In this document: piece after piece, positions 1 to 53,843 of the stretch
Numbering within the stretch: position 1 is the stretch's first letter
Layout: every line of letters begins with the position of its first letter
DNA from: a virus
Direction: 5' to 3' (one strand)
Length of the DNA stretch: 64,000 nucleotides
Virus record (IMG/VR): IMGVR_UViG_3300045594_000630
Made by a program: the position numbers and the translations under genes
Notes under the pieces: model-generated
What the model was told of the DNA's origin: nothing
The model's input: the letters and a program-made list of their open reading frames with translations, nothing else
Databases searched by the model: none

Positions 1-189
1 ATGGGAAGCGTGTGGACAGTGGCGGGAGGAACATGCTGTCCACATCAGCGAGTAACGATCTGATCTCAATCTTCATGGTGTCAGGAATGTGGTCAATGAT
101 CGTCAAGGCAACGGGTTTCTTATCCATGAGGATGTCCTTGTATAGGGTCGATACTGATGTGAGGTCTTGCTCGATGCAGATCAACGATA

Positions 190-1002
190 TCAGAACGTGA
201 ACACGATCTTGAGTCTGCAGGTGTCAAGCAGCTTCAGATTGTATGAGAGACGATCGATGTCTGACAGCATGGACTGCAACGATCTGCTGCTACCGAGTCT
301 GGATAAGATCATGCCTTCAGGTGAGATCACCCATTCAGGATGCTGCGCGTCTTGATGGTCGAAGATCTTGGGCTTCCTGCCGATCCATGCAAGAGCTGGC
401 TTCATAGATGCGGACAGGTTGAGGACAGCGTCAGACCACGCTTCAGCATAAGCGGTCTTCACGCCCTCCTTCCTCAGATCGTTCCAGGTGATGTCCTCAT
501 TCCTGATAGCATCATAGATCCCGACACTTACCGTCTTATGAATGATCGTGCTGTCCTTACTGATCCCCTCCGACCATGACGCGATCTGCTCCAGTCCACC
601 CGAGTACAAGCCCATACGATCGAGTTCACCGTCTGATGAGACGCTCCGGACGTCTGACCACCATTCGGGTCTGCGCATGATCGAATCTGCGGAAGGCCTC
701 CATATGGGCTCGAAGATCAATGGTTCTCCAGATCTGTGATGATCCCGCACCATGCGGATGAGTCGCATGCTGATGAGCGCGCGGGCTGACGACATCTCCT
801 GGGATGCAGGTGTCCGCAGTGTCTTCATGACCGGGGGATCAGTCTTGTCATGATCTTCCAGCCAGGCCACGGCTGCATTCTTGTCCGTCCAGTGTCTCAT
901 GGGCTTCCCGTTCTTATCCCTATGATTACGGCACTGCTTCGGGTCTTTCGCATAGCATTTCTCAAGACGTCCATCAGATATGACCCAGGAGATCTTCGAC
1001 AT
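190..1002 (-). CDS. hypothetical protein with N-terminal G-x-C-x-A-x-C-x-H motif
   Basis: ORF track 190..1068; start moved to the ATG at 1002 (MSKISW) because the shared Cys/His motif then lies at the N-terminus, as in three other proteins here. Confidence 0.7.
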   Translation of the reverse strand: MSKISWVISDGRLEKCYAKDPKQCRNHRDKNGKPMRHWTDKNAAVAWLEDHDKTDPPVMKTLRTPASQEMSSARALISMRLIRMVRDHHRSGEPLIFEPIWRPSADSIMRRPEWWSDVRSVSSDGELDRMGLYSGGLEQIASWSEGISKDSTIIHKTVSVGIYDAIRNEDITWNDLRKEGVKTAYAEAWSDAVLNLSASMKPALAWIGRKPKIFDHQDAQHPEWVISPEGMILSRLGSSRSLQSMLSDIDRLSYNLKLLDTCRLKIVFTF

Positions 1003-1190
1003 GGTATGAAGATATGCAGATCTGGGCTCTTGTAGGATGCGGACAAGACCTGGCGGCGATGATAGCATCTACGGCCACCGGGTACGTCTGGACTCTCGTG
1101 GACACGCCGGCTAAGTAAGATCATAAAAAGTTTTTTGGCTACGGGTCTCAACGTTTAGAGCATATCTGCAAAAGATCTTCCTGATAGATG

Positions 1191-1219
1191 TTGCATTCAT
1201 GCTAGCTCCGTGATATATT
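1191..1219 (+). promoter_or_regulatory. sigma70-type promoter upstream of the stand-alone omega-RNA
   Basis: TTGCAT-17 nt-TATATT with extended -10 TG. Confidence 0.65.
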
Positions 1220-1224
1220 ATCTA

Positions 1225-1425
1225 TTGTATTTGAAAGTTAAACAACTTGAATACAAGTTCGGGTTGAGCACCGTGTTACAGACGGAACGCTCCTGGCGTC
1301 CGAGAGGCGTCAGTCAAACCCCTGCTAGTAATCAGGGTTGACGTGAACGAGGATTCTCGGTAACGGCGACGGGTTTAACCAAGAATAACGGTTACTAGCA
1401 ACTGTCAACGTTCATAGGGAACGCT
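1225..1425 (+). ncRNA. stand-alone TnpB omega-RNA scaffold (to about 1405) plus putative guide
   Basis: About 1249-1405 is colinear with the 3' ends of both tnpB elements; conserved GCTAGTAA/TTACTAGC pseudoknot and AACTGT end; no tnpB ORF upstream. Confidence 0.8.
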
Positions 1426-1446
1426 ACTGATAAGGAACTGGAGGTC

Positions 1447-1596
1447 ATGATGGCAGCATTGCGTACAGTCAAATCAATGCGGTCGGCTCTTCAGGGCCAG
1501 TGGCCGCTTCAATCAGCTATGGATTATCAGCGCCTGAGTAGCGCAACGGCGTGCCTGATTAAGCATGTCTTTAATCCAGCGAGGATGATTGCGTAA
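1447..1596 (+). CDS. small ORF, 49 aa (MMAALRTVKS...RMIA)
   Basis: GGAGG Shine-Dalgarno before ATG; followed by a terminator; too short for the ORF track. Confidence 0.45.
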   Translation: MMAALRTVKSMRSALQGQWPLQSAMDYQRLSSATACLIKHVFNPARMIA

Positions 1597-1617
1597 CGTT
1601 GTAGATCTGTGGAAACA

Positions 1618-1658
1618 GAAACGGCGCAATCTTATCACGGGGATTGCGCCGTTCTTTG
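1618..1658 (+). terminator. intrinsic terminator
   Basis: aacggcgcaatc/gattgcgccgtt stem followed by a T-rich tail. Confidence 0.65.
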
Positions 1659-1682
1659 TATCTGTCACATAATTGAAGATTA

Positions 1683-1756
1683 CGGGTCGTAGCCCAGCTT
1701 GGTAGGGCGCCTCGTTCGGGACGAGGAGGCCGCGGGTTCAAATCCCGCCAACCCGA
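1683..1756 (+). tRNA. tRNA-Pro(CGG)
   Basis: cctcg-ttCGGga-cgagg. Confidence 0.92.
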
Positions 1757-1847
1757 CACGCCGTGGGAACACGATTGTCAACGACCGTGTTATCATGGAT
1801 AACGCCGCGCTTCACGGAGCGTCGATAACTTAAGAATGCACCATCAA

Positions 1848-1921
1848 CGGGATGTAGCGCAGCTTGGTAGCGCGCTTGCTTTGGGAGCAAGATGCCGCAG
1901 GTTCGAATCCTGTCATCCCGA
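1848..1921 (+). tRNA. tRNA-Pro(TGG)
   Basis: cttgc-ttTGGga-gcaag. Confidence 0.95.
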
Positions 1922-2459
1922 CGATGATCGCCTGATTCTCGTGACTGACTGATCGAGTGACGCTCGTGAAGATCAGCCGCGATGGTGATCTGAATAACTG
2001 AATACAGAACTGCTCGCACCAGTTGGAAGCAAAGTGCGCGACGGCCCGGGTACCGGAATGTGAAAGAACTCACCCTGCTTGGTCACGAAGATCACCATGT
2101 AGTCGATGGTGCAGTGACGGAGCGCCTGAATACAGGATCGAGCATGGGGAAGCCATCGCCCTGATTCTTGAAGGTCCGTATGGATCTGATGGAGATGTAC
2201 ATTGTACGTCAGCAACGCGATGATAACTCATGAACGGGATTACCAGCGTCATTCATGGAATGTTGACGACCCGTAGACATAAACAAGTTCCTTCAGATTA
2301 TCTTCAAAACGATGCAGATCTGCGGTCGGTGCGATGCAGATCTGAGGTCGTCGTCCCACCGGTGAGATGCACCGGCAACCGTTGATGATGCTGTGACCGC
2401 ATCATTGACAGCACATGTGGTCATCGTCGTGCTGGCGGACGTGAAACGCCAGTTCTTAT

Positions 2460-2534
2460 TCCCCGGGAGCAACCTTCGGCGGCTGCGATCGACTGTTAAT
2501 CGATAGAGAGCTGGTTCGACTCCAGTCCGGGGAG
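2460..2534 (+). tRNA. tRNA-Asn(GTT), atypical D arm (G8)
   Basis: atcga-ctGTTaa-tcgat; acceptor tccccgg/ccgggga. Confidence 0.8.
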
Positions 2535-2736
2535 CGATGGTTGAAAAGGGCGAAGATTGTTAAAAGATTGCTCATCATTCTGAATCCACGTGGTAGCTCC
2601 TCGTGGACGATGATAGGAAAGTCCGGAATCGAAAACTGATGACGATCATACTCTGGTCAATGTGCCATACAATCGGGAGGTCCATATCGTAATTCAGCGA
2701 GGCCTAGCGAGTAATTGACCTCAAGGTCCATCCAAT

Positions 2737-2813
2737 GCTTTCATGGCCCAATCGGCAGAGGCGCAGGGCACACTGCAGACCTGTTCATACTGGTTCGACT
2801 CCAGTTGGAAGCA
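2737..2813 (+). pseudogene. Leu-body tRNA-like gene with a 10-nt scrambled anticodon loop
   Basis: Body matches 6485-6558; anticodon arm caggg-cacactgcag-acctg. Confidence 0.65.
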
Positions 2814-2926
2814 CGCAGTATCAGTAGGCTATGAGCTGGCAGCGTGACGCAAGTCATCTTGGTTATCTGTGACCACCAGCGAGCTGAATGCAATAGCAGA
2901 CGGGTGAGTGCAAGGCTCACCATCAT

Positions 2927-3011
2927 GGATGATTCGCATAGAGGCCTAGTGCACTTGTCTTGAAAACAAGAGTGGGTCACACCACCGGGGGTTCGAATCC
3001 CTCATCATCCG
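2927..3011 (+). tRNA. tRNA-Ser(TGA)
   Basis: cttgt-ctTGAaa-acaag; long variable arm. Confidence 0.92.
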
Positions 3012-3121
3012 CGACCCGTACGTTGGGTCCATCTGGCGACACGATGGATTGGCGGTCCATCTTCTCCTGGCGGGGGATAGCCGGTTGATGTGATCGCATA
3101 CGGATTGCATCGCATACAGAT

Positions 3122-3206
3122 GCCCTCATGGCTGGAATAGGTAGACGCGGACGGCTCAAACCCGTCTCCCGTAATGGGGATCTCGGTTCGACTCCGAGTG
3201 AGGGTA
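3122..3206 (+). tRNA. tRNA-Leu(CAA)
   Basis: gacgg-ctCAAac-ccgtc; long variable arm. Confidence 0.92.
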
Positions 3207-3471
3207 CGACGAACACATCGGGCGGCTTAATCACCCGTCCGGTCGTGGGCATACATATGTCGCGCGTGGACGTGATTGATCCACGTGGATAGCCCGTTGC
3301 CAGGCATGTCCCGGCGGAAGTTTGATGCAGATTCTGCGTAGTTCGTCTTCCGTTGGGATCACTTGAAGACAGGTGCGGCCCGTTGGCTGCGGTGGAAGTG
3401 GGGTCCGAGTACCCAACGGTACCGGTTAGACTCCGGCTCCGGCGCGTGGGAACTCATCCATCTCCATATCT

Positions 3472-3545
3472 GCTCTCTTAGCCCAATTGGTAGAGGCGAT
3501 AGACCAAGGATCTATTCAGTGCGGGTTCGAGTCCCGTGGAGAGCA
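3472..3545 (+). tRNA. tRNA-Leu(AAG), C33, short variable loop
   Basis: ataga-ccAAGga-tctat; same body as the Leu TAG and CAG genes. Confidence 0.8.
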
Positions 3546-3896
3546 CAGATCTCATGACATCCTTACGGATGTCCTCTGAGATTCAGGGTCGATTCACTGT
3601 GGTGGTGATGAACATGCTCAAGGCCCGTCATGCAAGCATAGGAGTATGGAGCGAAGTTCCTATGTGGCTGCTGGTGCTGCGTAAACTGGTCGCGGTACAC
3701 GAATAACCAGATGATGTCCGGACTACTTGCCGGACAGACATGACAAGCAAGATGCTAACCACTGATTGCTTCCAGCATTAAATTGACTGGATAATGGCGA
3801 GATGGTGAAAGCCCATCGAGTGGAGTTAAAACCCGCGGCTTAATTAACCGTGGGGATCAGGGAGACTATGAATCGATCTGTTCACGCCACGCTTAC

Positions 3897-3969
3897 GCCC
3901 TTATAGCTCAGATGGTAGAGCAGCTGACTCTTAATCAGCGTGTCCGGGGTTCGAGCCCCCGTGAGGGCA
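3897..3969 (+). tRNA. tRNA-Lys(CTT)
   Basis: gctga-ctCTTaa-tcagc. Confidence 0.95.
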
Positions 3970-4017
3970 CTTATGAGCATTGATAGCATTGTGGCGCATT
4001 GATGATCATATGATTAT

Positions 4018-4101
4018 GGATGGTAGGCTGAGCGGTTAAGGCGCCTGTTCGCTAAACAGGTTCGTGTCACAGCGTGGTGGGTTCGACTCCCGCATCATCC
4101 G
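4018..4101 (+). tRNA. tRNA-Ser(GCT) copy 1, C33
   Basis: cctgt-tcGCTaa-acagg; paralog of 11519-11602. Confidence 0.82.
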
Positions 4102-4224
4102 CGGTCGGTAGGGGTTGTCCTCACTGGGCGATCAGCGACCTCATGAGCGCACGCATGGGATCAGTCACAGATCGTTGCAGTGCAGAACCCCTTCAGAAGA
4201 TGGACTCCGTGAAGGTCCACGAAT

Positions 4225-4297
4225 GCCGTCATAGCTCAGATGGTAGAGCGGCGAGCTGAAACCTCGCAGGTCGCTGGTTCAAGTCCAGTTGTCGGCA
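4225..4297 (+). tRNA. tRNA-Phe(GAA)
   Basis: gcgag-ctGAAac-ctcgc. Confidence 0.93.
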
Positions 4298-4298
4298 C

Positions 4299-4382
4299 GG
4301 TGCGGCTGAGCGACGGTCGCTCAGGTGGCCGTAACCCACCCGTTCGTAATGAGCATTGCAGGTTCGAATCCTGTCCGCACCA
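4299..4382 (+). tRNA. tRNA-Tyr(GTA), C33, atypical D arm
   Basis: ggtgg-ccGTAac-ccacc; acceptor ggtgcgg/ccgcacc. Confidence 0.75.
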
Positions 4383-4406
4383 CTCAGATCTGAAACAGAT
4401 CTGTAT

Positions 4407-4477
4407 GCGTCCATCGTATAATGGTAGTACTTGAGCTTCCAAACCTCATGATCTGGGTTCGATTCCTAGTGGGCGTG
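4407..4477 (+). tRNA. tRNA-Trp(CCA), probable (Gly-like D arm)
   Basis: tgagc-ttCCAaa-cctca with a C31-C39 mismatch; G73 and acceptor resembling 7618-7690. Confidence 0.65.
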
Positions 4478-4629
4478 CGAGACCAAGCCGTGAGGTGAGG
4501 TCATGGTTGACTGCATGATCGCCTACAATGCGTGTGGCTAGACACTGAAGTCATGCAGACAGCGTCGTCACTGGTATCGGCGGTGACGGCAACCGGTTCT
4601 CGTGTCCGGCTTACCAAAATACGACCAAT

Positions 4630-4702
4630 GGGGGCATGGCGCAGCTGGTAGCGCAACTCCTCAGCAAGGAGTAGGTCGCGGGTCCGAGTCCCGCTGCTTC
4701 CA
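4630..4702 (+). tRNA. tRNA-Ala(AGC), C33, C55
   Basis: actcc-tcAGCaa-ggagt; G3-U70, A73. Confidence 0.82.
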
Positions 4703-4929
4703 CTTGGATCCATCAAGACAGGGCGGCGTCAGCAGCATGATGGATCCGCGACACGCCGGTGATTGAGATCGGGCTGACTATGTTACAATGGTATTGTCCA
4801 CGAAAACGATGGATCACCCGAAGCCTGATAACCTAATCTAAGTCAATCATCTGGATCCATTGTCCACAGCGTATGCTCAGGATGATGGCAGGATGTCAAA
4901 GTCCCCGCGATGACGATAAACCCGCGAAT

Positions 4930-5010
4930 GCCCCTATGGTAGGAATTGGTAGACACGGTCGACTTAAAATCGATTGCTTAGGCGTCCCGGTTCGAGTCCG
5001 GGTGGGGGTA
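4930..5010 (+). tRNA. tRNA-Leu(TAA)
   Basis: gtcga-ctTAAaa-tcgat. Confidence 0.92.
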
Positions 5011-5125
5011 CAAGGTCGCGCCTAGGCGCGACCGCTCATCGGATCCATGTGATTCGATGAGCATGCAGTACCGTGAGATGATGCGGGTTCGAGTCCGCCT
5101 GGCAATCATTAACGGTGACGGAGTT

Positions 5126-5197
5126 GATCTAGTAACTCAATGGCAGAAGCTACTCCATTTATTGTGGAAATGCGGGTTCGAATCCCGCCTAGTGATC
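5126..5197 (+). pseudogene. degenerate tRNA (loop ttTATtg)
   Basis: Intact T arm gcggg-ttcgaat-cccgc; 2-nt insertion in the acceptor; weak D arm. Confidence 0.45.
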
Positions 5198-5282
5198 CGT
5201 CACAGATGATGCTGTGCGTCAATGGCGCATTGGAATAGATTCAACATTCTAATGGGGCCAGTCATCCAGCGTCCGCATGAAT

Positions 5283-5356
5283 GCTTTCATAGCCCAATAG
5301 GTAGAGGCGATGGATTTAGGATCCATTCAGTGCTGGTTCGAGTCCAGTTGAAAGCA
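5283..5356 (+). tRNA. tRNA-Leu(TAG), short variable loop
   Basis: atgga-ttTAGga-tccat. Confidence 0.9.
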
Positions 5357-5359
5357 CAA

Positions 5360-5446
5360 TGTCCGAATCAACTTAACGGCAGAGCAGCGGCCGAAACGCC
5401 GTGCGCGGGTCATTCCCGGCCTGTAGGGTTCGACTCCCACCGGACA
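5360..5446 (+). pseudogene. class II tRNA-like gene with a 6-nt anticodon loop
   Basis: gcggc-cgaaac-gccgt; variable-arm hairpin; ttcgact T loop. Confidence 0.4.
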
Positions 5447-5587
5447 GGAGCTGTATGCAAGTGGTGACGATCATGAGCATACGGTTCACAGCGTGGCGAA
5501 GATCTTGACGATGATCTTCATCACGCACGTTTGGCTCTATCATCGCTTGGCGATGATTGCAAGGTTCATCCCAAGGAGCCAATTCAT

Positions 5588-5659
5588 GGCCGTGAGGTCC
5601 TACGGTTGGACGCCTGCCTGTCGAGCAGGTTGCAGCGGGTTCAACTCCCGTCATGGTCG
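5588..5659 (+). tRNA. tRNA-Asp(GTC) copy 1
   Basis: cctgc-ctGTCga-gcagg. Confidence 0.88.
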
Positions 5660-5904
5660 CAAGGTGCCTGGTGTCTGCGCCGAGGATCAGCCCCTGGCTG
5701 ATCCATGACACCCGGTGGAAACGGCATGGTGACATGAAAACAGCATGGATCCATGATACGCCCTCCGTCTGTTACTTTCCGTCGGTGATGCTGAGGCGGC
5801 GGGGTTAACGATCTGTATTGTAGCGGATCGCTGCCGGCACGACCACATGGTCTTGAATGGACATGAAGCATCTCACGTGACGTCCGTGAAGCGTCACTTA
5901 AATT

Positions 5905-5984
5905 GGTGCGTTGGCAGAGCGGCAAATGCGGCTGGCTGTAAACCAGCTCTTTCGGGTTCGGGGGTTCGAGTCCCTCACGCACCA
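5905..5984 (+). tRNA. tRNA-Tyr(GTA)
   Basis: gctgg-ctGTAaa-ccagc. Confidence 0.93.
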
Positions 5985-6129
5985 CACAACATGTTTGGAT
6001 GGGTTAAAGGACACCAATGGCCCCATCCTGTTGACAGTGCTCACTGTCAACAGCGTGTGATCGTGCAGTGCAGGTGCCCAGTCGACCACTGCACGGGATA
6101 GTCCTCATGATGACGATAAAAGCATGAAT

Positions 6130-6200
6130 GCCTCTATAGTTCAAAGGAAGAACTTCGGACTTTTAATCCGCAGATCGGATATCGTAATTCCGTGGGGGCA
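6130..6200 (+). tRNA. tRNA-Lys(TTT) with aberrant T loop ATCGTAA
   Basis: tcgga-ctTTTaa-tccgc; acceptor gcctcta/tgggggc. Confidence 0.7.
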
Positions 6201-6484
6201 CGATGGTCATGTGGATTGCAACTGCGTGATCACGACTCGAATCTGCAGATTCGGGAATATGGATGCAAGTGAGCACAAGCCGCTGGTTGTGGTTCGAATC
6301 CCGCTCCTCAATGGTTATACCGGCGAGGGCGCGCCAATCGGTAGAGCGGGCGGCTGAACTCAACTGCATTCATCATGCAAGCATGTGGGGGTGTTCGACT
6401 CCCGCCTAGGGGCTCCATCGTGAGAGCGGTGGACACGCCCTTGGTGGTCTAGGGGTCATGGCGCTTCATATTGCTTGCACTTAT

Positions 6485-6558
6485 GCTTCCATAGCCCAAC
6501 AGGTAGAGGCGCAGGCTTCAGGAGTCTGTCAGTGCCGGTTCGAATCCAGTTGGAAGCA
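6485..6558 (+). tRNA. tRNA-Leu(CAG), short variable loop
   Basis: caggc-ttCAGga-gtctg. Confidence 0.88.
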
Positions 6559-6695
6559 CGGGCCACTAAAGATGTGAGTTCGCTCTGAAATCTAGCTAGA
6601 TACATCAATTGACCAAGGATGGTAACGTTGCGGAGTCATGATCCGTATGACGCGGATGTCACACGATGTTGGCATCATGCATCACCATTCGATAT

Positions 6696-6769
6696 GCTCT
6701 CATAGCCCAATGGATCAGAGCGCTTGTCTACGGAACAAGAGGGTGCGGGTTCGAGTCCCGCTGGGAGCA
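6696..6769 (+). tRNA. tRNA-Arg(ACG)
   Basis: cttgt-ctACGga-acaag. Confidence 0.93.
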
Positions 6770-6795
6770 CCGTGACCACATGGTGTGGTCATTAT

Positions 6796-6866
6796 TGCCC
6801 ATTCGTCTAACGGCAGGACGAAGGTCTTTGGTACCTTTAAAGTTGGTTCGAATCCAGCATGGGCAG
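6796..6866 (+). tRNA. tRNA-Gln(TTG)
   Basis: aaggt-ctTTGgt-acctt. Confidence 0.92.
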
Positions 6867-6867
6867 C

Positions 6868-6940
6868 GCTTCTCTGGCTCAATGGTTACAGCATCTGACT
6901 CTTAATCAGAGGATTGTGGGTTCGATCCCCACGGGGAGCA
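6868..6940 (+). tRNA. tRNA-Lys(CTT) copy 2
   Basis: tctga-ctCTTaa-tcaga. Confidence 0.9.
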
Positions 6941-6974
6941 CTTGGGGACATTCTGGTGACAGATGTCTACCATA

Positions 6975-7014
6975 GGGGCGGCTATATACCATGGTTCAAA
7001 TCCATGGCGCTCCA
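6975..7014 (+). ncRNA. tRNA-Ala-like minihelix (acceptor plus T arm only)
   Basis: ggggcg/cgctcc with G3-U70 and A73; ccatgg-ttcaaat-ccatgg; 8-nt linker replaces the D and anticodon arms. Confidence 0.5.
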
Positions 7015-7056
7015 CGACGGATGATGTCAGATCTGCTCCACATCGTCCTCACGTAT

Positions 7057-7129
7057 TGCTTGATAGCGCAACTGGGAACGCGCTCCGCTCTGGACGGAGA
7101 GATTGCAGGTCCGAATCCTGCTCAAGCAG
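7057..7129 (+). tRNA. tRNA-Gln(CTG), C55
   Basis: ctccg-ctCTGga-cggag. Confidence 0.88.
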
Positions 7130-7217
7130 CTTCACAGGTTTGGTGGCTAGCGTCGGCGGGTTGATACTGCCGACGCCCGTAGCGAGGGAGAGTCCTCGTG
7201 CAGATCTGTGGATTCTT

Positions 7218-7292
7218 GCCCTTGTAGCTCAGCGGATCAGAGCATCGGTCCTCGGAACCGAGTTGTCGCAGGTTCGAATCCTGTCAGGGGCA
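7218..7292 (+). tRNA. tRNA-Arg(TCG), C33
   Basis: tcggt-ccTCGga-accga. Confidence 0.85.
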
Positions 7293-7330
7293 CTGGCGAT
7301 GGTGCAGGCAGTGATGCTTGCGGATCGCCT

Positions 7331-7375
7331 GCAGCGTCACCGGGTCAGGGTGGGAACACAGCAGCCCAGCGCTGT
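7331..7375 (+). ncRNA. ffs: minimal SRP (4.5S-like) RNA, domain IV/helix 8
   Basis: cagcgt-cacc-ggg-tcagg-gtg-GGAA-cac-agcag-ccc-a-gcgctg: GGAA tetraloop with the symmetric and asymmetric loops of the SRP consensus. Confidence 0.8.
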
Positions 7376-7377
7376 TT

Positions 7378-7450
7378 GGGGTTGTAGCTCAGATGGTAGA
7401 GCGCTTCGTTCGCATCGAAGAGGTCGCGGGTTCGACTCCCGCTAATTCCA
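7378..7450 (+). tRNA. tRNA-Ala(CGC)
   Basis: cttcg-ttCGCat-cgaag; G3-U70. Confidence 0.92.
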
Positions 7451-7532
7451 CTGACCTTGGATCTGGTCTTACCATTGATGGGGCGCTTAGCTCCGTCATC
7501 TTCTGTACCTAGGCTGGTCCGAGTGTCTTCAT

Positions 7533-7615
7533 GGTGCGTTGGCAGAACGGCGAATGCAGTCGATCATACAGATCGGCATCTTCGGGATACGGGGGTTCGA
7601 GTCCCTCACGCACCG
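7533..7615 (+). pseudogene. Tyr-body tRNA-like gene with extended anticodon arm and G73
   Basis: Paralog of 5905-5984; arm gtcgatc-ataca-gatcggc. Confidence 0.6.
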
Positions 7616-7617
7616 CA

Positions 7618-7690
7618 TCGTCCGTGGCGTAAATGGTAGCGCAGCGGTCTCCAAAACCGCAGATTGCAGGTTCGAGTCCTGTCGGGCGTG
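7618..7690 (+). tRNA. tRNA-Trp(CCA)
   Basis: gcggt-ctCCAaa-accgc; G73. Confidence 0.9.
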
Positions 7691-7724
7691 CTATGACTGC
7701 AACCTGTAAAAAGGGTAGTCGTAT

Positions 7725-7796
7725 GCCGGTATAGCACAATGGTCAATGCTTCTGCTTAGTAAACAGATGATGATGGTTCGATTCCATCTATCGGCT
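7725..7796 (+). tRNA. tRNA-Thr(AGT)
   Basis: tctgc-ttAGTaa-acaga (C31-A39 mismatch). Confidence 0.82.
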
Positions 7797-7797
7797 C

Positions 7798-7871
7798 GTT
7801 CGCGTGGCGCAGTTGGTTAGCGCGCTTCCATGACACGGAAGAGGTCGCCTGTTCGAGTCAGGCCGTGAGCA
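7798..7871 (+). tRNA. tRNA-Val(GAC)
   Basis: cttcc-atGACac-ggaag. Confidence 0.92.
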
Positions 7872-7872
7872 C

Positions 7873-7945
7873 GCCTCCATAGCTCAGATGGTAGAGCGGC
7901 TCTCTCGTAAAGAGCAGGTCTCCGGTCCGATTCCGGATGGTGGCT
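7873..7945 (+). tRNA. tRNA-Thr(CGT), C55
   Basis: gctct-ctCGTaa-agagc. Confidence 0.9.
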
Positions 7946-7975
7946 CTAGTGGAACAGATCTGTATCCACGATCAT

Positions 7976-8047
7976 GCGGGTATCGTACATCGGTAAGTAC
8001 ATCTTTCTGATGAGAAGAAAAGCGGAGTTCGACTCTCTGTACCCGTA
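7976..8047 (+). tRNA. tRNA-Ile(GAT), Gly-like body
   Basis: tcttt-ctGATga-gaaga; A73. Confidence 0.75.
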
Positions 8048-8071
8048 CTGGTGACAGACTGCTGTCATCAT

Positions 8072-8144
8072 GGGGACGTAACTCAATTGGTAGAGTGCTT
8101 CCCTTGCAAGGAAGATGTAGCGAGTTCGAATCTCGTCGCCTCCA
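8072..8144 (+). tRNA. tRNA-Ala(TGC)
   Basis: cttcc-ctTGCaa-ggaag; G3-U70. Confidence 0.92.
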
Positions 8145-8267
8145 CGGCGCCCGTTCAACGGGCTATGTCATTAGAAGCGTTCTAACGCGCATTAGACGTG
8201 AGACCATCATGAAGATGAGTGTTCATTCATCTTCATGGTTATCTCGCTTAGAACGCAATCTAAGCAT

Positions 8268-8339
8268 CCGGATGTAGTACAACGGTTAGTATAATTGTCT
8301 GATACACAATTGACGATAGTTCAACTCTATCCATCCGGA
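8268..8339 (+). tRNA. tRNA-Ile(GAT)
   Basis: attgt-ctGATac-acaat. Confidence 0.88.
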
Positions 8340-8406
8340 CTATGGATCCATATGATGTGGACATGTGAGCAAGCATTGAGCCCGTCATGATGGATCCATT
8401 CTGCAT

Positions 8407-8480
8407 CGCTGCGTAGCTCAGTTGGTGAGAGCGTTCGACCCATAATCGAGAGGTCGGTGGTTCGAGTCCACCCGTAGTGA
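8407..8480 (+). tRNA. tRNA-Met or Ile2 (CAT), C33
   Basis: ttcga-ccCATaa-tcgag; positions 1-72 paired. Confidence 0.82.
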
Positions 8481-8601
8481 CGATCCTGTTAGCATGACGA
8501 CTGGTCATCTCATGCTGATGGGGTAAGAATGAGAGCAGCGTTGGATTGACCGATCCGCGTGGATTTGCGTCCGTTAGTGGCGTGATCCCCCATTCGATTA
8601 T

Positions 8602-8674
8602 GGTCCTATGGAGCAACGGTCACCTCGTCTGATTCTCAGTCAGAAGATTCCGGGTTCGATTCCCGGTGGGACTA
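8602..8674 (+). tRNA. tRNA-Glu(CTC)
   Basis: tctga-ttCTCag-tcaga. Confidence 0.92.
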
Positions 8675-8892
8675 CGCAGCATTGAGTACATGTCCGGTTC
8701 AATGGGCACATCCAAATAGTCTCTCAGGATCAATGTGAGGATGGGTCAGATCATGATGGAAGTCCTGTAGATCGTGGTCATCATGCTGCACGCAACATAC
8801 GGGTCTAGCGGTCCCGTCGGTGATCATTGCGAGCATTACAGCGCATCGTGCTCGCATGATCTTACAGATCCTCCGTCAATGGATCTTATTAT

Positions 8893-8964
8893 GGCCTTGA
8901 GGTCCTCCGGTTGGACGCCTGCCTGTCGAGCAGGTTGCAGCGGGTTCGATTCCCGTCATGGTCG
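8893..8964 (+). tRNA. tRNA-Asp(GTC) copy 2
   Basis: Near duplicate of 5588-5659; one acceptor mismatch. Confidence 0.85.
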
Positions 8965-8965
8965 C

Positions 8966-9036
8966 CGTGGTGTGGCCGAATGGTTAGGCGGCGGTCTGCA
9001 AAACCGTATAAGTCAGTTCGATTCTGATCACCACGT
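8966..9036 (+). tRNA. tRNA-Cys(GCA)
   Basis: gcggt-ctGCAaa-accgt; U73. Confidence 0.92.
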
Positions 9037-9039
9037 CTT

Positions 9040-9353
9040 GAGTTCCGCTTGACGTCGCGCGTCTAACAGGCGTGAGGAAATTCGGGGCATCATAGGGCAG
9101 GGGTGTGGATTAGACCACCGATCGTGAGATCAGCGATAGCGCCGCAGAGACCATACCGCCGATGGATCCATACGGGTCACAGGCAAGGGTGAAAAGCGTG
9201 AGGTAAGAGCTCACGGGATAATCTTCGCGAGGAGATCCTTGGCAAGCCGACCCTGATGAAACCACAAGTCGTGCTGGGCGGCCCGTCCAATAGCACAGGT
9301 AGCGGGATCAGATGGATGGCGTCTTAGACAGAACTCCGGTTACGGTGGAACTC
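9040..9353 (+). ncRNA. rnpB: RNase P RNA (bacterial type A-like, compact)
   Basis: P1 gagttccgc/gtggaactc; CR-I gaggaaattcgggg; agcgccgcagaga; accgccgatgg; aagggtgaaaag-ggtaagagc; CR-V acagaactccggtta. Confidence 0.9.
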
Positions 9354-9378
9354 ATGAACGATCTGCTCGACACTCCGG

Positions 9379-9407
9379 TTGTCAAGATGCTCGATCAGTG
9401 ATATGAT
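9379..9407 (+). promoter_or_regulatory. internal sigma70-type promoter of the array
   Basis: TTGTCA-17 nt-TATGAT with extended TG. Confidence 0.55.
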
Positions 9408-9488
9408 GGATCATGTTGTTCCTGATGACAACAGAAGCTTGATAACAGGATAGTGATTGACCCGATGAAGTCAGTAAACTCATCATAT

Positions 9489-9562
9489 GCCCGCATAGCC
9501 CAATGGACTAGAGCGCCAGTTTCCTAAACTGTAGGTTGTCGGTTCGAATCCGACTGTGGGCA
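9489..9562 (+). tRNA. tRNA-Arg(CCT)
   Basis: ccagt-ttCCTaa-actgt. Confidence 0.9.
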
Positions 9563-9735
9563 CTTGGACACTCCGGTGAAGCTATCCTCATGTGAAGACG
9601 TAGGGGCTTGACAGGGGCTGGTGGAGTGGACAATCGTGTAGGCAATGCGGTTAAGCGTCGTCAATGGTCGCAAAGTAGGCGGAAGCGTTGACAAGCATGC
9701 CGATCCCAGCAGGATGGCGCCATCTTGCTGGTTAC

Positions 9736-9809
9736 GCCTCGGTAGTCTAATGGATCAAAACGCCACTCCTCTAAAGTGGATAGTATGGGTTCGAATCCCA
9801 TTCGAGGCA
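9736..9809 (+). tRNA. tRNA-Arg(TCT), C33
   Basis: ccact-ccTCTaa-agtgg. Confidence 0.85.
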
Positions 9810-9810
9810 C

Positions 9811-9885
9811 GTGGACTATGGCTCAATGGTAGAGCGACGGATTGTGGCTCCGTAGGTGCGGGTTCGATTCCCGCTAGCCCAACCA
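9811..9885 (+). tRNA. tRNA-His(GTG) with G-1, A73 and encoded CCA
   Basis: acgga-ttGTGgc-tccgt. Confidence 0.88.
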
Positions 9886-9926
9886 CCGATGAGAATGTCA
9901 ACAGATGTTGACAAGAATCATCGTAT

Positions 9927-10001
9927 GGCCCCGCGGTGTGCTTGGTCTGCGCATACGTGACTTTCAATCACATGGTGACGGTTCGAGTCCGTCCGGGGCT
10001 A
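9927..10001 (+). tRNA. tRNA-Glu(TTC)
   Basis: cgtga-ctTTCaa-tcaca. Confidence 0.85.
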
Positions 10002-10030
10002 CCCTCCATGAGACATGGATGAACGATCTT

Positions 10031-10101
10031 GCCCCATTGTCGCCGGTTGCGCAACGATATCTTATAAACATTGTAAGAGGGTTCAACTCCTTCATGGGGT
10101 A
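10031..10101 (+). tRNA. tRNA-Ile(TAT), atypical D arm
   Basis: gatat-ctTATaa-acatt; acceptor gccccat/atggggt; A73. Confidence 0.6.
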
Positions 10102-10266
10102 CTTGTCGGGGAATGGCATAGTCTCCAGCGCACGTCATCCTAGGTGGCGTGGTCAACTGGCGGCAAGCGCCAGCAGATCTGATCTGTCGCTTCCCGTAAG
10201 AACAGCTCCTCTCCCCGACCACATCGTGATATCTTGTACACGACATTGGTATCATGGTGCTTGCAT

Positions 10267-10337
10267 GCGGATGTAGCCCAATGGTAAGGCGTCAGTCTTC
10301 CAAACTGATTACGCGGGTCCGATTCCCGTCATCCGCT
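10267..10337 (+). tRNA. tRNA-Gly(TCC), C55
   Basis: tcagt-ctTCCaa-actga; U73. Confidence 0.9.
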
Positions 10338-10493
10338 CTGAAGGCCAACAGCTCCTGGACTAGCGATCCGAGAGTTGCATAAACGGTGTGGTAGTCTGTT
10401 GGCCTGTAACACGCGCTGCGTCTCATGTGCCGGCAAGCGCCGTCACGCAGGCTATATCGGACACTCACGTGGTGAGACAGGGTGTCCACCAAT

Positions 10494-10566
10494 GCGGACA
10501 TGGTCTAGCTGGTAAGACGCGACCTTCCCAAGGTTGAGATCGCGGGTTCGAGCCCCGTTGTCCGCT
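10494..10566 (+). tRNA. tRNA-Gly(CCC)
   Basis: cgacc-ttCCCaa-ggttg. Confidence 0.92.
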
Positions 10567-10693
10567 CGATCGTCATTGCGGTAATGGCTGGCCGGGCAGT
10601 AATGGCGTTGATACCCGGAACTGCGCTCCTTGTGGATTCGATTGTATCCACGCAGGGTTAGGCGATCACGATGGAGCTTGTCGCCGCCATTAT

Positions 10694-10766
10694 GCTTCCG
10701 TAGCTCAGATGGCAGAGCGCCTCGGTCACATCGAGGATGTCGATGGTTCAAGTCCATTCGGAAGCA
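10694..10766 (+). tRNA. tRNA-Val(CAC)
   Basis: cctcg-gtCACat-cgagg. Confidence 0.92.
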
Positions 10767-10767
10767 C

Positions 10768-10844
10768 TGCGGGGTCGAGTAGCAATTCGGTAGCTCTCGT
10801 GGCTCATACCCACGGTGTTGCAGGTTCAAATCCTGCCCCCGCTA
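10768..10844 (+). tRNA. initiator-like tRNA-fMet(CAT)
   Basis: cgtgg-ctCATac-ccacg; U1-U72 mismatch; only two of the three G-C pairs. Confidence 0.8.
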
Positions 10845-10885
10845 CTAAGATCTGCGCTCATGAACGCAGATCTGCATGCAGTCTT

Positions 10886-10961
10886 GCTCCTGTAGCCCAG
10901 TCCGGCCCAAGGCGTCTGCCTTACACGCAGAAGATCCATGGTTCGAATCCATGTGGGAGCA
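10886..10961 (+). tRNA. tRNA-Val(TAC)
   Basis: tctgc-ctTACac-gcaga. Confidence 0.92.
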
Positions 10962-11105
10962 CGGCGGAACCTACTTGCAAGAGTCATCGTGCTGATAGTT
11001 CCCGAACGGGAGTAAGACGAGTGCAGGGAATGCCCTGGACTCGTCGAGAATTCAATGGTCGACTGGTTCCTTTCGCAATGCTGGCATTCAAGCATTGCAC
11101 TCAAT

Positions 11106-11178
11106 GCGGACATAGCTTAGTTGGTAAAGCGCGACCTTGCCAAGGTCGAGACCGCGGGTTCAAGTCCCGTTGTCCGCT
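11106..11178 (+). tRNA. tRNA-Gly(GCC)
   Basis: cgacc-ttGCCaa-ggtcg. Confidence 0.95.
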
Positions 11179-11182
11179 CTTC

Positions 11183-11255
11183 GCCTTGTTAGCTCAGATG
11201 GTAGAGCGGCCGCCTTGTAAGCGGCAGGTCTCCGGTTCAAGCCCGGAACATGGCT
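11183..11255 (+). tRNA. tRNA-Thr(TGT)
   Basis: gccgc-ctTGTaa-gcggc. Confidence 0.93.
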
Positions 11256-11256
11256 C

Positions 11257-11341
11257 GGATGATTCGCATAGTGGTCGAGTGCACTTGTCTAGAAAACAAG
11301 AGTGGGTCACACCGCCGGGGGTTCGAATCCCTCATCATCCG
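11257..11341 (+). tRNA. tRNA-Ser(AGA)
   Basis: cttgt-ctAGAaa-acaag; near duplicate of Ser(TGA) at 2927. Confidence 0.88.
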
Positions 11342-11518
11342 CTATTGATGATGGATAGATCGGTCTTCAACGATCTTATCAGCAGTCAAGAAACATGATA
11401 GCAGGGATTGAAGATACTTGCTGTCATGGATCGTGGTGGACACGCCCTGGTGCATAGCCAGGAACACGATCTAGTCAGGGTGGCTCCATGCCATCACTGA
11501 CAGCGCCATGATCATTAT

Positions 11519-11602
11519 GGATGGTAGGCTGAGCGGTTAAAGCGCCTCACTGCTAATGAGGTTCGGGTAACACCGTGGCGGGTTCGACTCCCGCATCATC
11601 CG
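11519..11602 (+). tRNA. tRNA-Ser(GCT) copy 2
   Basis: cctca-ctGCTaa-tgagg. Confidence 0.92.
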
Positions 11603-11857
11603 CAAGATCATGCCGGCAGTGATGTGGACATGATCCCTCCGCCGCAGGGGAACTGGGGAGCCGTGTGGGATCCCCGACTGCGGTCATGTCGGCTCTGCCC
11701 ACAGACTGCCGGCATCGTGGAGATCCCTGGTCGCGCAGGTCAAGACGCGCCGTGGAGGCTGGCCGTGCTCCACGATCATCAAAAACCAGGCGGATATGCT
11801 AAACAGAGCTAATAGGAATCTGGGAACCATGCTGTCTGCATGTGAGACAGCATGTAT

Positions 11858-11943
11858 GGAGAGTGTGATCTATTGGTAAGGTCGACCCGCTTCGAATACG
11901 GGCGCCGGTAATACGGTTAGGGGTTCGATTCCCTTACTCTCCG
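11858..11943 (+). tRNA. tRNA-Ser(CGA)
   Basis: cccgc-ttCGAat-acggg; long variable arm; G73. Confidence 0.85.
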
Positions 11944-11958
11944 CAATCATTGTCACGG

Positions 11959-12888
11959 TCATACCATCGTCGGTATGAAACCGATCTGGAAGATCTGCTG
12001 TCGTCCTCCCATGTTCAATATGACAGCTCTCCCCCTTGGCCTAGCCGGGAGATCATACCTCGGGTTCTCCGAGAACAAATCCCTGAATGCTTTCCAATTC
12101 TGATGTCCGCAATAGATCTTCGTCATAGAGTTCGATACGATCTCACGACCAGAAGTACTGATCGTATCAAGATAGCCAGTGATCATGAAGACATAGATGC
12201 CGGCGCTCCTGCACAGCCTGACCAGATAGTTGATAGTGTCAGTCATGAGCGAGATCTTCTCTGCCGCATGGACAGTTCCCATTCTAGACGGGCTCAGCGT
12301 GGAGACCCCTCCGAGCAGCCAGTCAGCTGGATCAATAATGATCCATTCAGTCTTCCTCGACGATAAGATCTTCTCCTCGCCCTCAGCGTCACCAACCGTG
12401 TTAGCAAGCTGCTTGTACGTGTCATTCATCTCAACCCTCAGACGAGTGATGAGATCATACGCCTCATCTATGCTCCGGGCCACACGGTCACCTTGACGAA
12501 GATTCTTCTGGACTCCATTAAGATCAATGACGTTCAGTCTGATCCCATCATGACGGAGTCCGTGCTCGATGATCGTCCTCATAAGAACGGTCTTACCGCT
12601 TCCTGTTCCTCCGGATACGATCACACTGGGATTCTTGTTAAGATCGAGGATCACATCCTTACCGCCCTCTCCAGCACCTATGCGGACAGTTGAGCGCGGA
12701 TCGTCATCATCGTTCCTGGAGTCGGTATCGATCGGCTTGTATATGAGCTCGTTGGGGAGATCGGGGTCTGGAGCACTGACCCCAAGTTGCTTCAGATTGG
12801 AGTCAAGGGTCTTCCATGTCGGGGTTCCCGGATTCACCGTGACGAGGAACGGCTTGCCGTTAAGCGCTTCATCCCTACTTGACAACAA
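11959..12888 (-). CDS. FtsK/SpoIIIE-like P-loop ATPase
   Basis: VILDLNKNPSVIVSGGTGSGKT Walker A; LVRLCRSAGI motif; start uncertain. Confidence 0.75.
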   Translation of the reverse strand: MLSSRDEALNGKPFLVTVNPGTPTWKTLDSNLKQLGVSAPDPDLPNELIYKPIDTDSRNDDDDPRSTVRIGAGEGGKDVILDLNKNPSVIVSGGTGSGKTVLMRTIIEHGLRHDGIRLNVIDLNGVQKNLRQGDRVARSIDEAYDLITRLRVEMNDTYKQLANTVGDAEGEEKILSSRKTEWIIIDPADWLLGGVSTLSPSRMGTVHAAEKISLMTDTINYLVRLCRSAGIYVFMITGYLDTISTSGREIVSNSMTKIYCGHQNWKAFRDLFSENPRYDLPARPRGRAVILNMGGRQQIFQIGFIPTMV

Positions 12889-12959
12889 TATGGATCCATC
12901 AGATCTGTAATCATACTGAATGTTAAGATCATTAGTCGTTTTCTTATTCCTTATTCCAT

Positions 12960-14714
12960 TGTAAACGTTAGATACCTGTTTTTCTTGTTATTTATGTTAC
13001 CGTCGTGATAATGATTAACGAGTTGCCTTTATAATGATCTTGAATGGTATAATATTCATTATCATAGTCAAGGGGTGAATAACCGTGAGGAAGAGCAAGA
13101 TCATCAGCATGGCGCTGAGCCTTAACCTGAGCGATGCTATCATTACCCCGTCACCCGGGAAGCGGCAGCCAAGCGTTACGGAATGGCCACCTTACATCAT
13201 GAGCACCCTACAGACTCAGACGAGGGATCAGAATAAGATCATAAGGCTTAACAAGGGCTTGGATCCTGATGACATGACTACTGGTCTCAAGTACTCGGAT
13301 CCCCTCATCCGCAAGAACATGATCATCCCGTCCAGCGTCAAGGAGAGCAGGGCGAGCGCATGGTTGAACACGGCATGGAGTCTGATTAACGACCAGTTAG
13401 AGTCATGGCGCTTACTCGCTCCATGGGCTCAACGATCCAGGCTCTTTGACGAAATCCGCGAGGGACCGAGCCTCGGGTTCAAGGACTTCAGGAGGAAGCA
13501 CGGGTACGAGTACCTGGACTACCAGCTCTGGTCTAACGTGCAGAGAATGAAGAGTAAGCCAGGACTCCCCGTCGTGAAGTCAGCGAGAATCTCGTACTCC
13601 AAGATGGGAGTACAGTGCTCCGGGGCGCCATGGTACGATAGTAAGACTGGAGTCTTGCACTGGGAATGCGTGAACATCGGTCAAGCGCGCCTAGACTTCT
13701 CATGGCACGCTCCGTGGATTCGTGCACGATACCCTCGCAGGTCCCTTCAGACCGGACGGATCAGCCGAGGAACGGTCCAGGCCGTACCCATGACTAGCCA
13801 CTCATTCAGCGTGGGGTACGGGGAGGACGCGAGCGGTAAGATCCGTGCTAGCATCTCTCGTGAGAATAACCGAGTAACATTCAGCCCGGCGACGGATGAC
13901 GTACGATTCACCTTCACGATTAAGGCTACTCGGCCATCGATACGCAAGCGTGTTAAGGCGGTTGCCGGGTTTGATATCGGGATGGAGTCGCACGCGGTGA
14001 TAGCCGGCCGGCGCGTGAGCCTGAACGGCGGAACGAGCAGGCCGCTCACGCTGAGCCGGGAGGGATTATCCCTCCAGCGTCACATCATCTCGCTCCAGCT
14101 AAAAGAACGGGAGGCTCTCGCGAAGCTCTCGAGGATCATGCAGGATCATGAGCCTGTGGCGAACCCGAGGCTCGTGGAGGGTGCTATCCATCTTCACGAG
14201 AAGCTGGAGGCGCTGAAGGCCGCGATGGACTGGGTCGCCGCGGACTCAGCCGTGAAGCACTGCCGTCCGGGTGACGTGCTCGTAATGGAGGAGCTCTCAT
14301 GGTCTGGCGGTGGCGCGGTGAAGTTCCGTCACGGCCGGCAGCAGGCTCGTGTCCAGCACCTCGCCGCTAGGCGCGGTTTCAGGATGGTTAGGGTGAACCC
14401 TGCCGGATCTAGTCACGAGTGTCCATCATGCCACGCCGCGTACGATGCGGATCCGAGGAGTCACGCCTTCAAGTGCAGCTCTTGCGGGTACGCGGGGGAT
14501 AAGGATGACGCGGCCGGTTTTATCATCGCACTCCGCGGCTTGGAGAAGCTCCGCAAGAATAACAATTACGGGTTGAGCGCCGTGGTACAGACGGTCCGCT
14601 CTCGTCGTCCAAGAGGCGACGGTTATGCCCATGCTAGTAACCAGGGTCACCGCGAACGAGCATGCTCGGTAACGGCGGCGGGTCTAACCAAGAATAACGG
14701 TTACTAGCAACTGT
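12960..14714 (+). mobile_element. non-autonomous tnpB-only element, copy 1 (IS200/605/607 superfamily)
   Basis: Homology with copy 2 runs from TGTAAAC to AACTGT; no tnpA; omega-RNA overlaps the last ~46 codons. Confidence 0.85.
13085..14707 (+). CDS. tnpB: TnpB RNA-guided endonuclease, 540 aa
   Basis: RuvC FDIG / VMEEL / DKDDAA; CPSC-CSSC zinc finger. Confidence 0.85.
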   Translation: MRKSKIISMALSLNLSDAIITPSPGKRQPSVTEWPPYIMSTLQTQTRDQNKIIRLNKGLDPDDMTTGLKYSDPLIRKNMIIPSSVKESRASAWLNTAWSLINDQLESWRLLAPWAQRSRLFDEIREGPSLGFKDFRRKHGYEYLDYQLWSNVQRMKSKPGLPVVKSARISYSKMGVQCSGAPWYDSKTGVLHWECVNIGQARLDFSWHAPWIRARYPRRSLQTGRISRGTVQAVPMTSHSFSVGYGEDASGKIRASISRENNRVTFSPATDDVRFTFTIKATRPSIRKRVKAVAGFDIGMESHAVIAGRRVSLNGGTSRPLTLSREGLSLQRHIISLQLKEREALAKLSRIMQDHEPVANPRLVEGAIHLHEKLEALKAAMDWVAADSAVKHCRPGDVLVMEELSWSGGGAVKFRHGRQQARVQHLAARRGFRMVRVNPAGSSHECPSCHAAYDADPRSHAFKCSSCGYAGDKDDAAGFIIALRGLEKLRKNNNYGLSAVVQTVRSRRPRGDGYAHASNQGHRERACSVTAAGLTKNNGY

Positions 14715-53752: not shown

Positions 53753-53843
53753 CAACTGATCTGTCACCCCTGTCATCCATCTTATCAGATTCATGGTATG
53801 ATGCTACCATTGTTACGTACTTACGGTAAGATGGAGGTAGAGC

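Follow-up and report, generated by a model that had tools for sequence, protein, structure and literature searches.

The stretch of DNA analysed here (the window), 64,000 nucleotides of IMG/VR virus record IMGVR_UViG_3300045594_000630, carries a tRNA gene array in which tRNAs with adenosine at wobble position 34 (A34) take the place of tRNAs with guanosine at that position (G34) in the Leu, Ser, Thr and Ala codon boxes. In the textbook view, A34 tRNAs other than Arg-ACG are nearly absent from bacterial systems. The array comprises 51 tRNA genes for all 20 amino acids, which ARAGORN and Infernal place on the plus strand between positions 1683 and 11944. Five of these genes have A34 anticodons according to ARAGORN, namely tRNA-Leu(AAG) at 3472..3546, tRNA-Ala(AGC) at 4630..4703, tRNA-Arg(ACG) at 6696..6771, tRNA-Thr(AGT) at 7725..7797 and tRNA-Ser(AGA) at 11257..11342, and all five exceed the Rfam tRNA gathering score (47.6-63 bits). 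No GAG, GGC, GGT or GGA gene was found in the array by ARAGORN, a permissive Infernal scan of positions 1-13000 adds no tRNA-like gene, and the 7 kb upstream of the window yielded no tRNA gene. Val-GAC, Gly-GCC and Ile-GAT retain G34 in the window, and Pro is represented by CGG and TGG only. An earlier note on this DNA (the original prediction) had proposed that A34 replaces G34 in these four boxes while Val and Gly keep G34, and ARAGORN, Rfam and Infernal confirm this proposal. The range given for it, 3472-11341, spans all of the A34 genes but falls short of the true extent of the array.

The A34 genes do not serve their boxes alone. C34 and U34 partners are present for Leu (CAG at 6485..6559 and UAG at 5283..5357), Ala (CGC at 7378..7451 and UGC at 8072..8145), Thr (CGT at 7873..7946 and UGT at 11183..11256) and Ser (CGA at 11858..11944 and UGA at 2927..3012), all on the plus strand and called by ARAGORN. 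The Arg box has only UCG (7218..7293, plus strand) and no CCG. Superwobbling in the strict sense of one tRNA per box, which had been offered as an explanation of the replacements, is ruled out by these partners.

Conservation and origin of the A34 genes

The same set is present in a relative of the window's element, IMG/VR contig 3300044557_000292 (hereafter G001), which is 419,707 bp long, has direct terminal repeats and is rated 100% complete by CheckV. The two are collinear, with protein identities of 30-77% and about 60% overall. G001 has 50 tRNA genes in a single array at 306.4-320 kb, and these include Leu-AAG, Ala-AGC, Thr-AGT, Ser-AGA and Arg-ACG in the gene order of the window, plus a Ser-ACU gene. 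Neighbors are shared as well: in both arrays the genes after Thr-AGT are Val-GAC and Thr-CGT, Trp is next to Ala-AGC, Thr-UGU is next to Ser-AGA, and Arg-ACG precedes Gln-UUG. The original prediction had called for a check for G34 copies elsewhere on the element, and none exist in the complete G001 genome, from which GAG, GGC, GGU, GGA and GGG genes are all absent.

The five A34 ortholog pairs differ at 8-22 bases, with their anticodons unchanged. Their stems have undergone 17 compensatory and nine one-sided changes, and not one base pair is broken; Leu-AAG contributes seven of the compensatory pair changes relative to G001 and Ala-AGC contributes five. Identity elements are also kept, including G3:U70 and A73 in tRNA-Ala, the long arm and G73 in the class II tRNA-Ser, the Leu-type D loop and A73 in tRNA-Leu, and G1-C72/C2-G71 in tRNA-Thr. 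Moreover, contigs from independent runs cover all five A34 genes with zero differences. Because of the compensatory changes, the unchanged anticodons and the identical independent assemblies, the A34 genes are best regarded as working genes, and the sequence comparison indicates that they have been kept by selection since before the window's element and G001 split. The earlier suggestion that selection stands behind the set is thus borne out by its conservation in G001, by the compensatory stem changes and by the shared gene order.

It is very improbable that the A34 genes instead play no role in decoding, whether as duplicates that are neutral or in decay or as artefacts of assembly or sequencing. 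Some odd members of the array could be cited in favor of this explanation, such as a gene with an 8-nt anticodon loop at 2737-2814 and an aberrant Tyr-like gene at 7533-7616. However, five anticodons have been maintained at orthologous positions in a relative of about 60% identity, the stems are intact, and the Rfam scores and the agreement among independent runs are those given above. Sequencing error and decay, both of which had been named as grounds for abandoning the original prediction, are effectively excluded by the identical assemblies and the lack of broken pairs.

The origin of one of the genes is evident from its paralog. In both elements Ser-AGA and the resident Ser-UGA gene share 94-95% identity (94% in the window, with a difference at position 34), which indicates that Ser-AGA arose by duplication and a change of position 34 rather than from a G34 gene. 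Since the whole set is common to the window and G001, the switches appear to be old and shared rather than four recent events. The phrase "four independent switches" in the original prediction was therefore too strong, both because the switches predate the split and because Ser-AGA is a duplicate of Ser-UGA. In G001 the tRNA-Ser(ACU) gene (317522-317611, minus strand) brings A34 into the split AGN box and occupies the place of the window's Ser-GCU at 4018-4102. G001 also has an ordinary Ser-GCU, with 100% identity to the window gene at 11519-11603.

Decoding by A34 tRNAs and its possible advantage

We find no cytidine-deaminase-fold gene in the window with PF14437, PF00383 or a zinc-motif scan. 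The same searches of G001, in which the zinc-motif scan covered six frames, reveal only one such gene, and its motifs and NCBIfam matches (ComEB, dCTP deaminase) identify it as a dCMP/dCTP-type enzyme and not as TadA. Likewise, the deaminase adjoining another A34-bearing phage array (G011) is of the dCMP type. A broadened TadA carried by the element, one of the mechanisms that had been proposed, therefore finds no support, as neither the complete G001 nor the window has a TadA paralog and a nucleotide deaminase is all that is encoded. Any editing of A34 to inosine (I34) would thus have to come from the host.

The anticodon loops differ in how well they would serve as substrates for such editing. 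The Arg-ACG loop is CUACGGA in both elements and fits the canonical 7-nt TadA substrate with U33-A34-C35-G36. The Leu-AAG loop of G001, CUAAGGA, departs from it only at position 35, whereas that of the window, CCAAGGA, has C33. Ser-AGA, Thr-AGU and Ala-AGC lack both C35 and G36, and Ala-AGC (loop UCAGCAA in the window) carries C33 in both elements. Known TadA enzymes act narrowly: of 15 A34 anticodons placed in an engineered tRNA, the Escherichia coli enzyme edits only three, and those partially, and in Oenococcus oeni two of the four A34 tRNAs are edited (PMC11066159). Unmodified A34 reads mainly U, and also C and G in GC-rich boxes (PMC11066159). In Lactobacillales, AAG and GAG are mutually exclusive and TadA makes Leu-IAG (PMC13249217). 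Given the lack of a TadA gene, the loop mismatches, the narrow range of known TadA enzymes and the Ser-ACU gene of G001, it seems likely that Ser-AGA, Thr-AGU and Ala-AGC are mostly unmodified, and that Arg-ACG and perhaps Leu-AAG are edited.

The reading that we tentatively prefer, while holding it with somewhat less than even confidence, is that the element supplies its own A34 readers of pyrimidine-ending codons as a private tRNA pool under tRNA-targeting defence. The element appears to bring its own translation RNAs, comprising the 51 tRNAs, a bacterial class A RNase P RNA inside the array (9039..9358, plus strand; Rfam 166.5 bits) and a tmRNA (53408-53753, plus strand; ARAGORN and Rfam) whose tag, AAYNTSDFALAA, is identical in G001, and genes for a CCA-adding enzyme and IF3 are adjacent. 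In each of the Leu CUN, Ser UCN, Thr ACN, Ala GCN and Arg CGN boxes the A34 tRNA would be the reader of the pyrimidine-ending codons. Host TadA would convert Arg-ACG, and possibly Leu-AAG, to I34, and Ser-AGA, Thr-AGU and Ala-AGC would most likely remain A34. The unmodified tRNAs would pair with NNU in Watson-Crick fashion and would be weaker readers of NNC, and host G34 tRNAs would provide a back-up. The advantage may be a pool with anticodon loops unlike those of the host, which could sustain translation while host tRNAs are cleaved or depleted. Such a pool would also match the roughly 50% share of NNU codons in the A34 boxes.

Two further features of the elements bear on this possible advantage. 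U33 is near-universal in tRNAs. C33 replaces it in nine of 51 tRNAs in the window and in nine of 50 in G001, and the two elements share it only in Ala-AGC and one Met-CAU. Position 33 thus turns over quickly, as C33 lies mostly on different genes in the two arrays. We considered C33 as a trait specific to A34 tRNAs and rejected it, because it occurs in two of the five A34 tRNAs versus nine of 51 overall and is mostly unconserved between the elements. The second feature is a 506-aa protein of G001 that fuses a P-loop kinase to a T4 Rnl1-type RNA ligase (RNA_lig_T4_1; 377922-379442, minus strand; L055:17922-19442) and that, from its domains, looks like a tRNA repair enzyme. In phage T4, a kinase and the Rnl1 ligase together reseal tRNA that has been cut by an anticodon nuclease. 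The nearest named relatives of the fusion protein are from Bifidobacterium (48-51% identity), an 80% identical protein is encoded on a 4-kb ENA contig, and no kinase-Rnl1 enzyme was seen within the window. Resistance to host tRNA nucleases has been suggested for phage tRNAs whose anticodon loops are altered (PMC10264068). The turnover of C33, the kinase-Rnl1 enzyme and this phage precedent make a defence-driven private pool a reasonable motive, and by analogy escape from nucleases is a plausible one for the adoption of A34.

The Leu tRNAs that read CUN codons are also unusual in form. Leu-AAG, Leu-UAG and Leu-CAG of the window and their counterparts in G001 (318081, 316288 and 318578) are 75 nt long with a 5-nt variable loop, and they retain the Leu-type D loop (AAUUGGUAGA, with a 3-bp D stem) and A73. 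The long arm is retained in Leu-CAA and Leu-UAA. A search with PF00133 found no class I synthetase for the short tRNA-Leu on the element. Short Leu tRNAs of 77 nt make up 37 of the approximately 107 Leu genes that we sampled in other IMG/VR phage arrays and none of those in the bacterial loci sampled. A bolder proposal would combine all of these traits, such that the G34-to-A34 change in four to five boxes, the U33-to-C33 changes, the short-arm tRNA-Leu and the element's own RNase P RNA, CCA enzyme and ligase form an orthogonal pool that evades host anticodon nucleases recognising G34, with unmodified A34 reading NNY. We regard this proposal as unlikely. If it were true, phage tRNA arrays would generally be using wobble-base replacement to counter host defence, and the frequent occurrence of Thr-AGU in place of Thr-GGU would be explained.

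Several observations weigh against a private pool of largely unmodified A34 readers. The link between codon usage and A34 is weak, with mean U/(U+C) values for A34 versus G34 boxes of 0.48 versus 0.29 in the window and 0.54 versus 0.48 in G001, a difference that is not significant. In the A34 boxes 25-28% of codons end in C, and these would be read poorly by unmodified A34 unless host G34 tRNAs persist; reliance on host tRNAs is hard to square with the apparent self-sufficiency of the element in other respects. In addition, the strict choice of A34 or G34 in each box resembles the pattern of I34 systems (PMC13249217), and the host TadA could be broad. Finally, the kinase-Rnl1 repair enzyme is known from G001 and not from the window.

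Some of these points would be accommodated by a true eukaryote-like system, in which all five A34 tRNAs are deaminated by a broadened host TadA or by an unrecognised enzyme of the element, so that I34 reads U, C and A and G34 becomes dispensable. We consider such a reading unsupported and on balance doubtful. The presence of A34, C34 and U34 in each box, the mutual exclusion of A34 and G34 and the G34 of Gly mirror the eukaryotic layout, and the exclusivity of AAG and GAG parallels that of Lactobacillales, where TadA makes Leu-IAG (PMC13249217). The C-ending codons would need a reader if the element is self-sufficient, and the near identity of the Leu-AAG and Arg-ACG loops in G001 suggests that the former could be a substrate as well. 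However, two Pfam models and the six-frame zinc-motif scan find neither a TadA nor an ADAT-like gene in the complete G001, the U33-A34-C35-G36 context is missing from the loops of Ser, Thr and Ala (with C33 in Ala-AGC), and the bacterial TadA enzymes that are known are narrow. Moreover, Ser-ACU of G001 belongs to a split box, where inosine would misread the Arg codon AGA.

Alternatively, the host lineage itself might use A34 in these boxes, and the element might have copied or might track the host tRNA set. Thr-AGT is native to many Lactobacillaceae, Weissella, Erysipelotrichaceae, Clostridia and Mollicutes, Ala-AGC is found sporadically in several phyla, and weak hints of a Gram-positive host come from TelA, whose nearest clusters are from Bacillota and Actinomycetota, and from the 48-51% identity of the kinase-Rnl1 protein to those of Bifidobacterium. 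Nevertheless, we judge this origin to be rather improbable. The close match between Ser-AGA and the element's own Ser-UGA points to an origin inside the array, no array tRNA is more than 84% identical to any locus in the genomes sampled, and no bacterium with combined Leu, Ser, Thr and Ala A34 genes was seen among the sampled genomes or in the literature examined.

Prevalence of A34 tRNAs and comparison with known systems

Genes for Ala-AGC or Thr-AGT with a canonical D arm were sought in IMG/VR, where the first 120 matches were listed, and in a bacterial set with one genome per species, which gave at least 120 loci. Among the IMG/VR matches listed, Thr-AGT is present in 89 of the 120 and never together with Thr-GGT, Ala-AGC is found in at least 26 loci and Ser-AGA in at least six. 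Most of these loci carry one non-Arg A34 anticodon, ten carry two and one carries three; Ser-AGA, Thr-AGT and Ala-AGC occur together in locus L284. The window's element, with four non-Arg A34 boxes, and G001, with five, are thus the fullest cases among the loci sampled. The bacterial matches listed include 94 Thr-AGT genes, mostly from Lactobacillaceae, Weissella, Erysipelotrichaceae, Clostridia and Mollicutes, whereas Ala-AGC is sporadic (Flavobacterium, Planctomycetota, Verrucomicrobiaceae, a Denitrobaculum array and a Cognatishimia-binned array). The last of these, a 2.6-kb contig (L142), has Pro-AGG and Ala-AGC in a compact array. The term "eukaryote-like", which the original prediction applied to this decoding, overstates its rarity, given how commonly phage arrays carry Thr-AGT without Thr-GGT.

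Decoding by unmodified A34 is, to our knowledge, represented by very few natural cases. The window's element and G001 provide a natural, conserved set of four to five A34 tRNAs without an accompanying gene for a deaminase to act on them, and the IMG/VR matches listed indicate that replacement of G34 by A34, especially in Thr, is widespread in phage tRNA arrays. We found no published description of A34 replacement in such arrays. These findings raise two questions: whether decoding through inosine has evolved anew in elements that infect bacteria or such elements read with unedited adenosine at position 34, and whether tRNA-cleaving defences of the host influence which wobble base is used.

Partial parallels exist in several known systems. 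The A34 sets of Bacillota, such as Leu-AAG edited to IAG in Lactobacillales and the four A34 tRNAs of O. oeni, also extend beyond Arg, show A34 and G34 to be exclusive, and include Leu-AAG and Thr-AGT (PMC13249217, PMC11066159). However, the set described here resides on a mobile element rather than a chromosome, covers four non-Arg boxes that include Ala-AGC and Ser-AGA (five boxes in G001), is not accompanied by TadA on the element, and has several loops that deviate from the TadA substrate, for example by C33. In eukaryotes, I34 decoding by ADAT2/3 (the TAPSLIVR set) similarly combines A34, C34 and U34 in Thr, Ala, Ser and Leu (A34 and U34 in Arg here), lacks G34 in these boxes and retains it in Gly. 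Unlike eukaryotes, the element keeps G34 for Val and Ile, has neither A34 nor G34 for Pro and encodes no ADAT or TadA homologue, and its tRNAs, known here from their genes alone, are of bacterial type, with a class II tRNA-Tyr, a bacterial RNase P RNA and a tmRNA.

The decoders that use unmodified A34, Mycoplasma tRNA-Thr(AGU) and yeast mitochondrial tRNA-Arg(ACG), resemble the element in having A34 without a G34 partner (PMC11066159), but theirs are minimal sets with a single tRNA per box, whereas the element adds C34 and U34. Among phage arrays thought to resist nucleases, that of mycobacteriophage cluster C1 (van den Berg et al. 2023) is similarly large and has departures in its anticodon loops, and G001 adds an Rnl1-type enzyme to the likeness. 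In the mycobacteriophage case, however, the changes flank the anticodon and leave decoding intact, while here the wobble base itself differs and the rules of codon reading change. The single A34 tRNAs of other phage arrays, such as Thr-AGT in IMG/VR contigs, are the same phenomenon, although the other sampled loci usually have a single non-Arg A34 anticodon, seldom two and never more than three.

The element and further features of the array

The window is best read as part of a giant, phage-like element from bioreactor sludge that is extrachromosomal and measures about 350-420 kb. Its DNA is present in bioreactor-sludge metagenomes from 2021, whereas no RNA run was found to contain the array, and, apart from single generic tRNAs, it has no DNA similarity to known phages or plasmids. 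The window encodes highly divergent gyrase subunits, an NAD-dependent ligase, TelA, ParB, a PIF1-type helicase, a TET-associated glycosyltransferase, two TnpB proteins and ATPases resembling those of type IV secretion and Tad systems; no plasmid-borne or bacterial homologue of its GyrA exceeds 32% identity. Just upstream of the window are genes for a CCA-adding enzyme, IF3 and a DnaX-like clamp loader. The CCA-adding enzyme, which has an HD domain, adjoins IF3 about 2 kb upstream of the array (L001 1767-3212), and an encoded CCA end is missing from nearly all of the array tRNAs, with the exception of His. We use the word phage because of the filing in IMG/VR, the terminal repeats and the T4-like accessory genes (rIIA-like, Rnl1, Nrd), which in G001 include rIIA-like, NrdA, NrdD, primase and dCMP deaminase genes. 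Terminase_6N was not found, and none of 30 large open reading frames compared with PHROGs matched a capsid, portal or terminase protein. The secretion- and Tad-like ATPases in the window mean that a plasmid-like lifestyle is also possible.

Searches for further relatives returned little. A GyrA scan of IMG/VR was empty, a scan with a GyrB alignment found only G001 in IMG/VR and nothing among metagenome contigs, a 292-aa protein that flanks the array matched only itself, and a TnpB scan of genomes found no relative of the element. Matches to the Ser anticodon-arm pattern were rejected as relatives, since they come from phages of about 150 kb that are unrelated and carry conventional tRNA sets rich in U34. 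A G001-like relative co-occurs with the window's element in the same sludge samples (runs X3, X4, X7 and X8; window 1600-12000), with contig depths of approximately 1000-1500 for the former and 13-45 for the latter, a difference of roughly a hundred-fold. The two TnpB genes of the window (13085-14707, plus strand, and 51167-52792, minus strand), which have a Cas12f1-like TNB domain, are without counterparts at the syntenic places of G001 and look like insertions specific to the window's element.

The odd members of the array deserve brief description. The gene at 2737-2814 belongs to the short Leu-NAG family, has an 8-nt anticodon loop for which ARAGORN reports the anticodon "actg", and scores 36.5 bits as an Rfam tRNA. 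The Tyr-like gene at 7533-7616 is 84 nt long and 82% identical to tRNA-Tyr at 5905, and its aberrant anticodon hairpin can be drawn either with A33 or with a 6-bp stem and a 5-nt loop; ARAGORN calls it "Val-TAC" and Rfam misses it. This gene could be a copy in decay or a decoy that resembles a tRNA. Between Arg-UCG and Ala-CGC, and overlapping the start of the latter gene, positions 7312-7401 give a near-threshold match to the bacterial small signal recognition particle RNA (38.6 bits versus a gathering score of 40).

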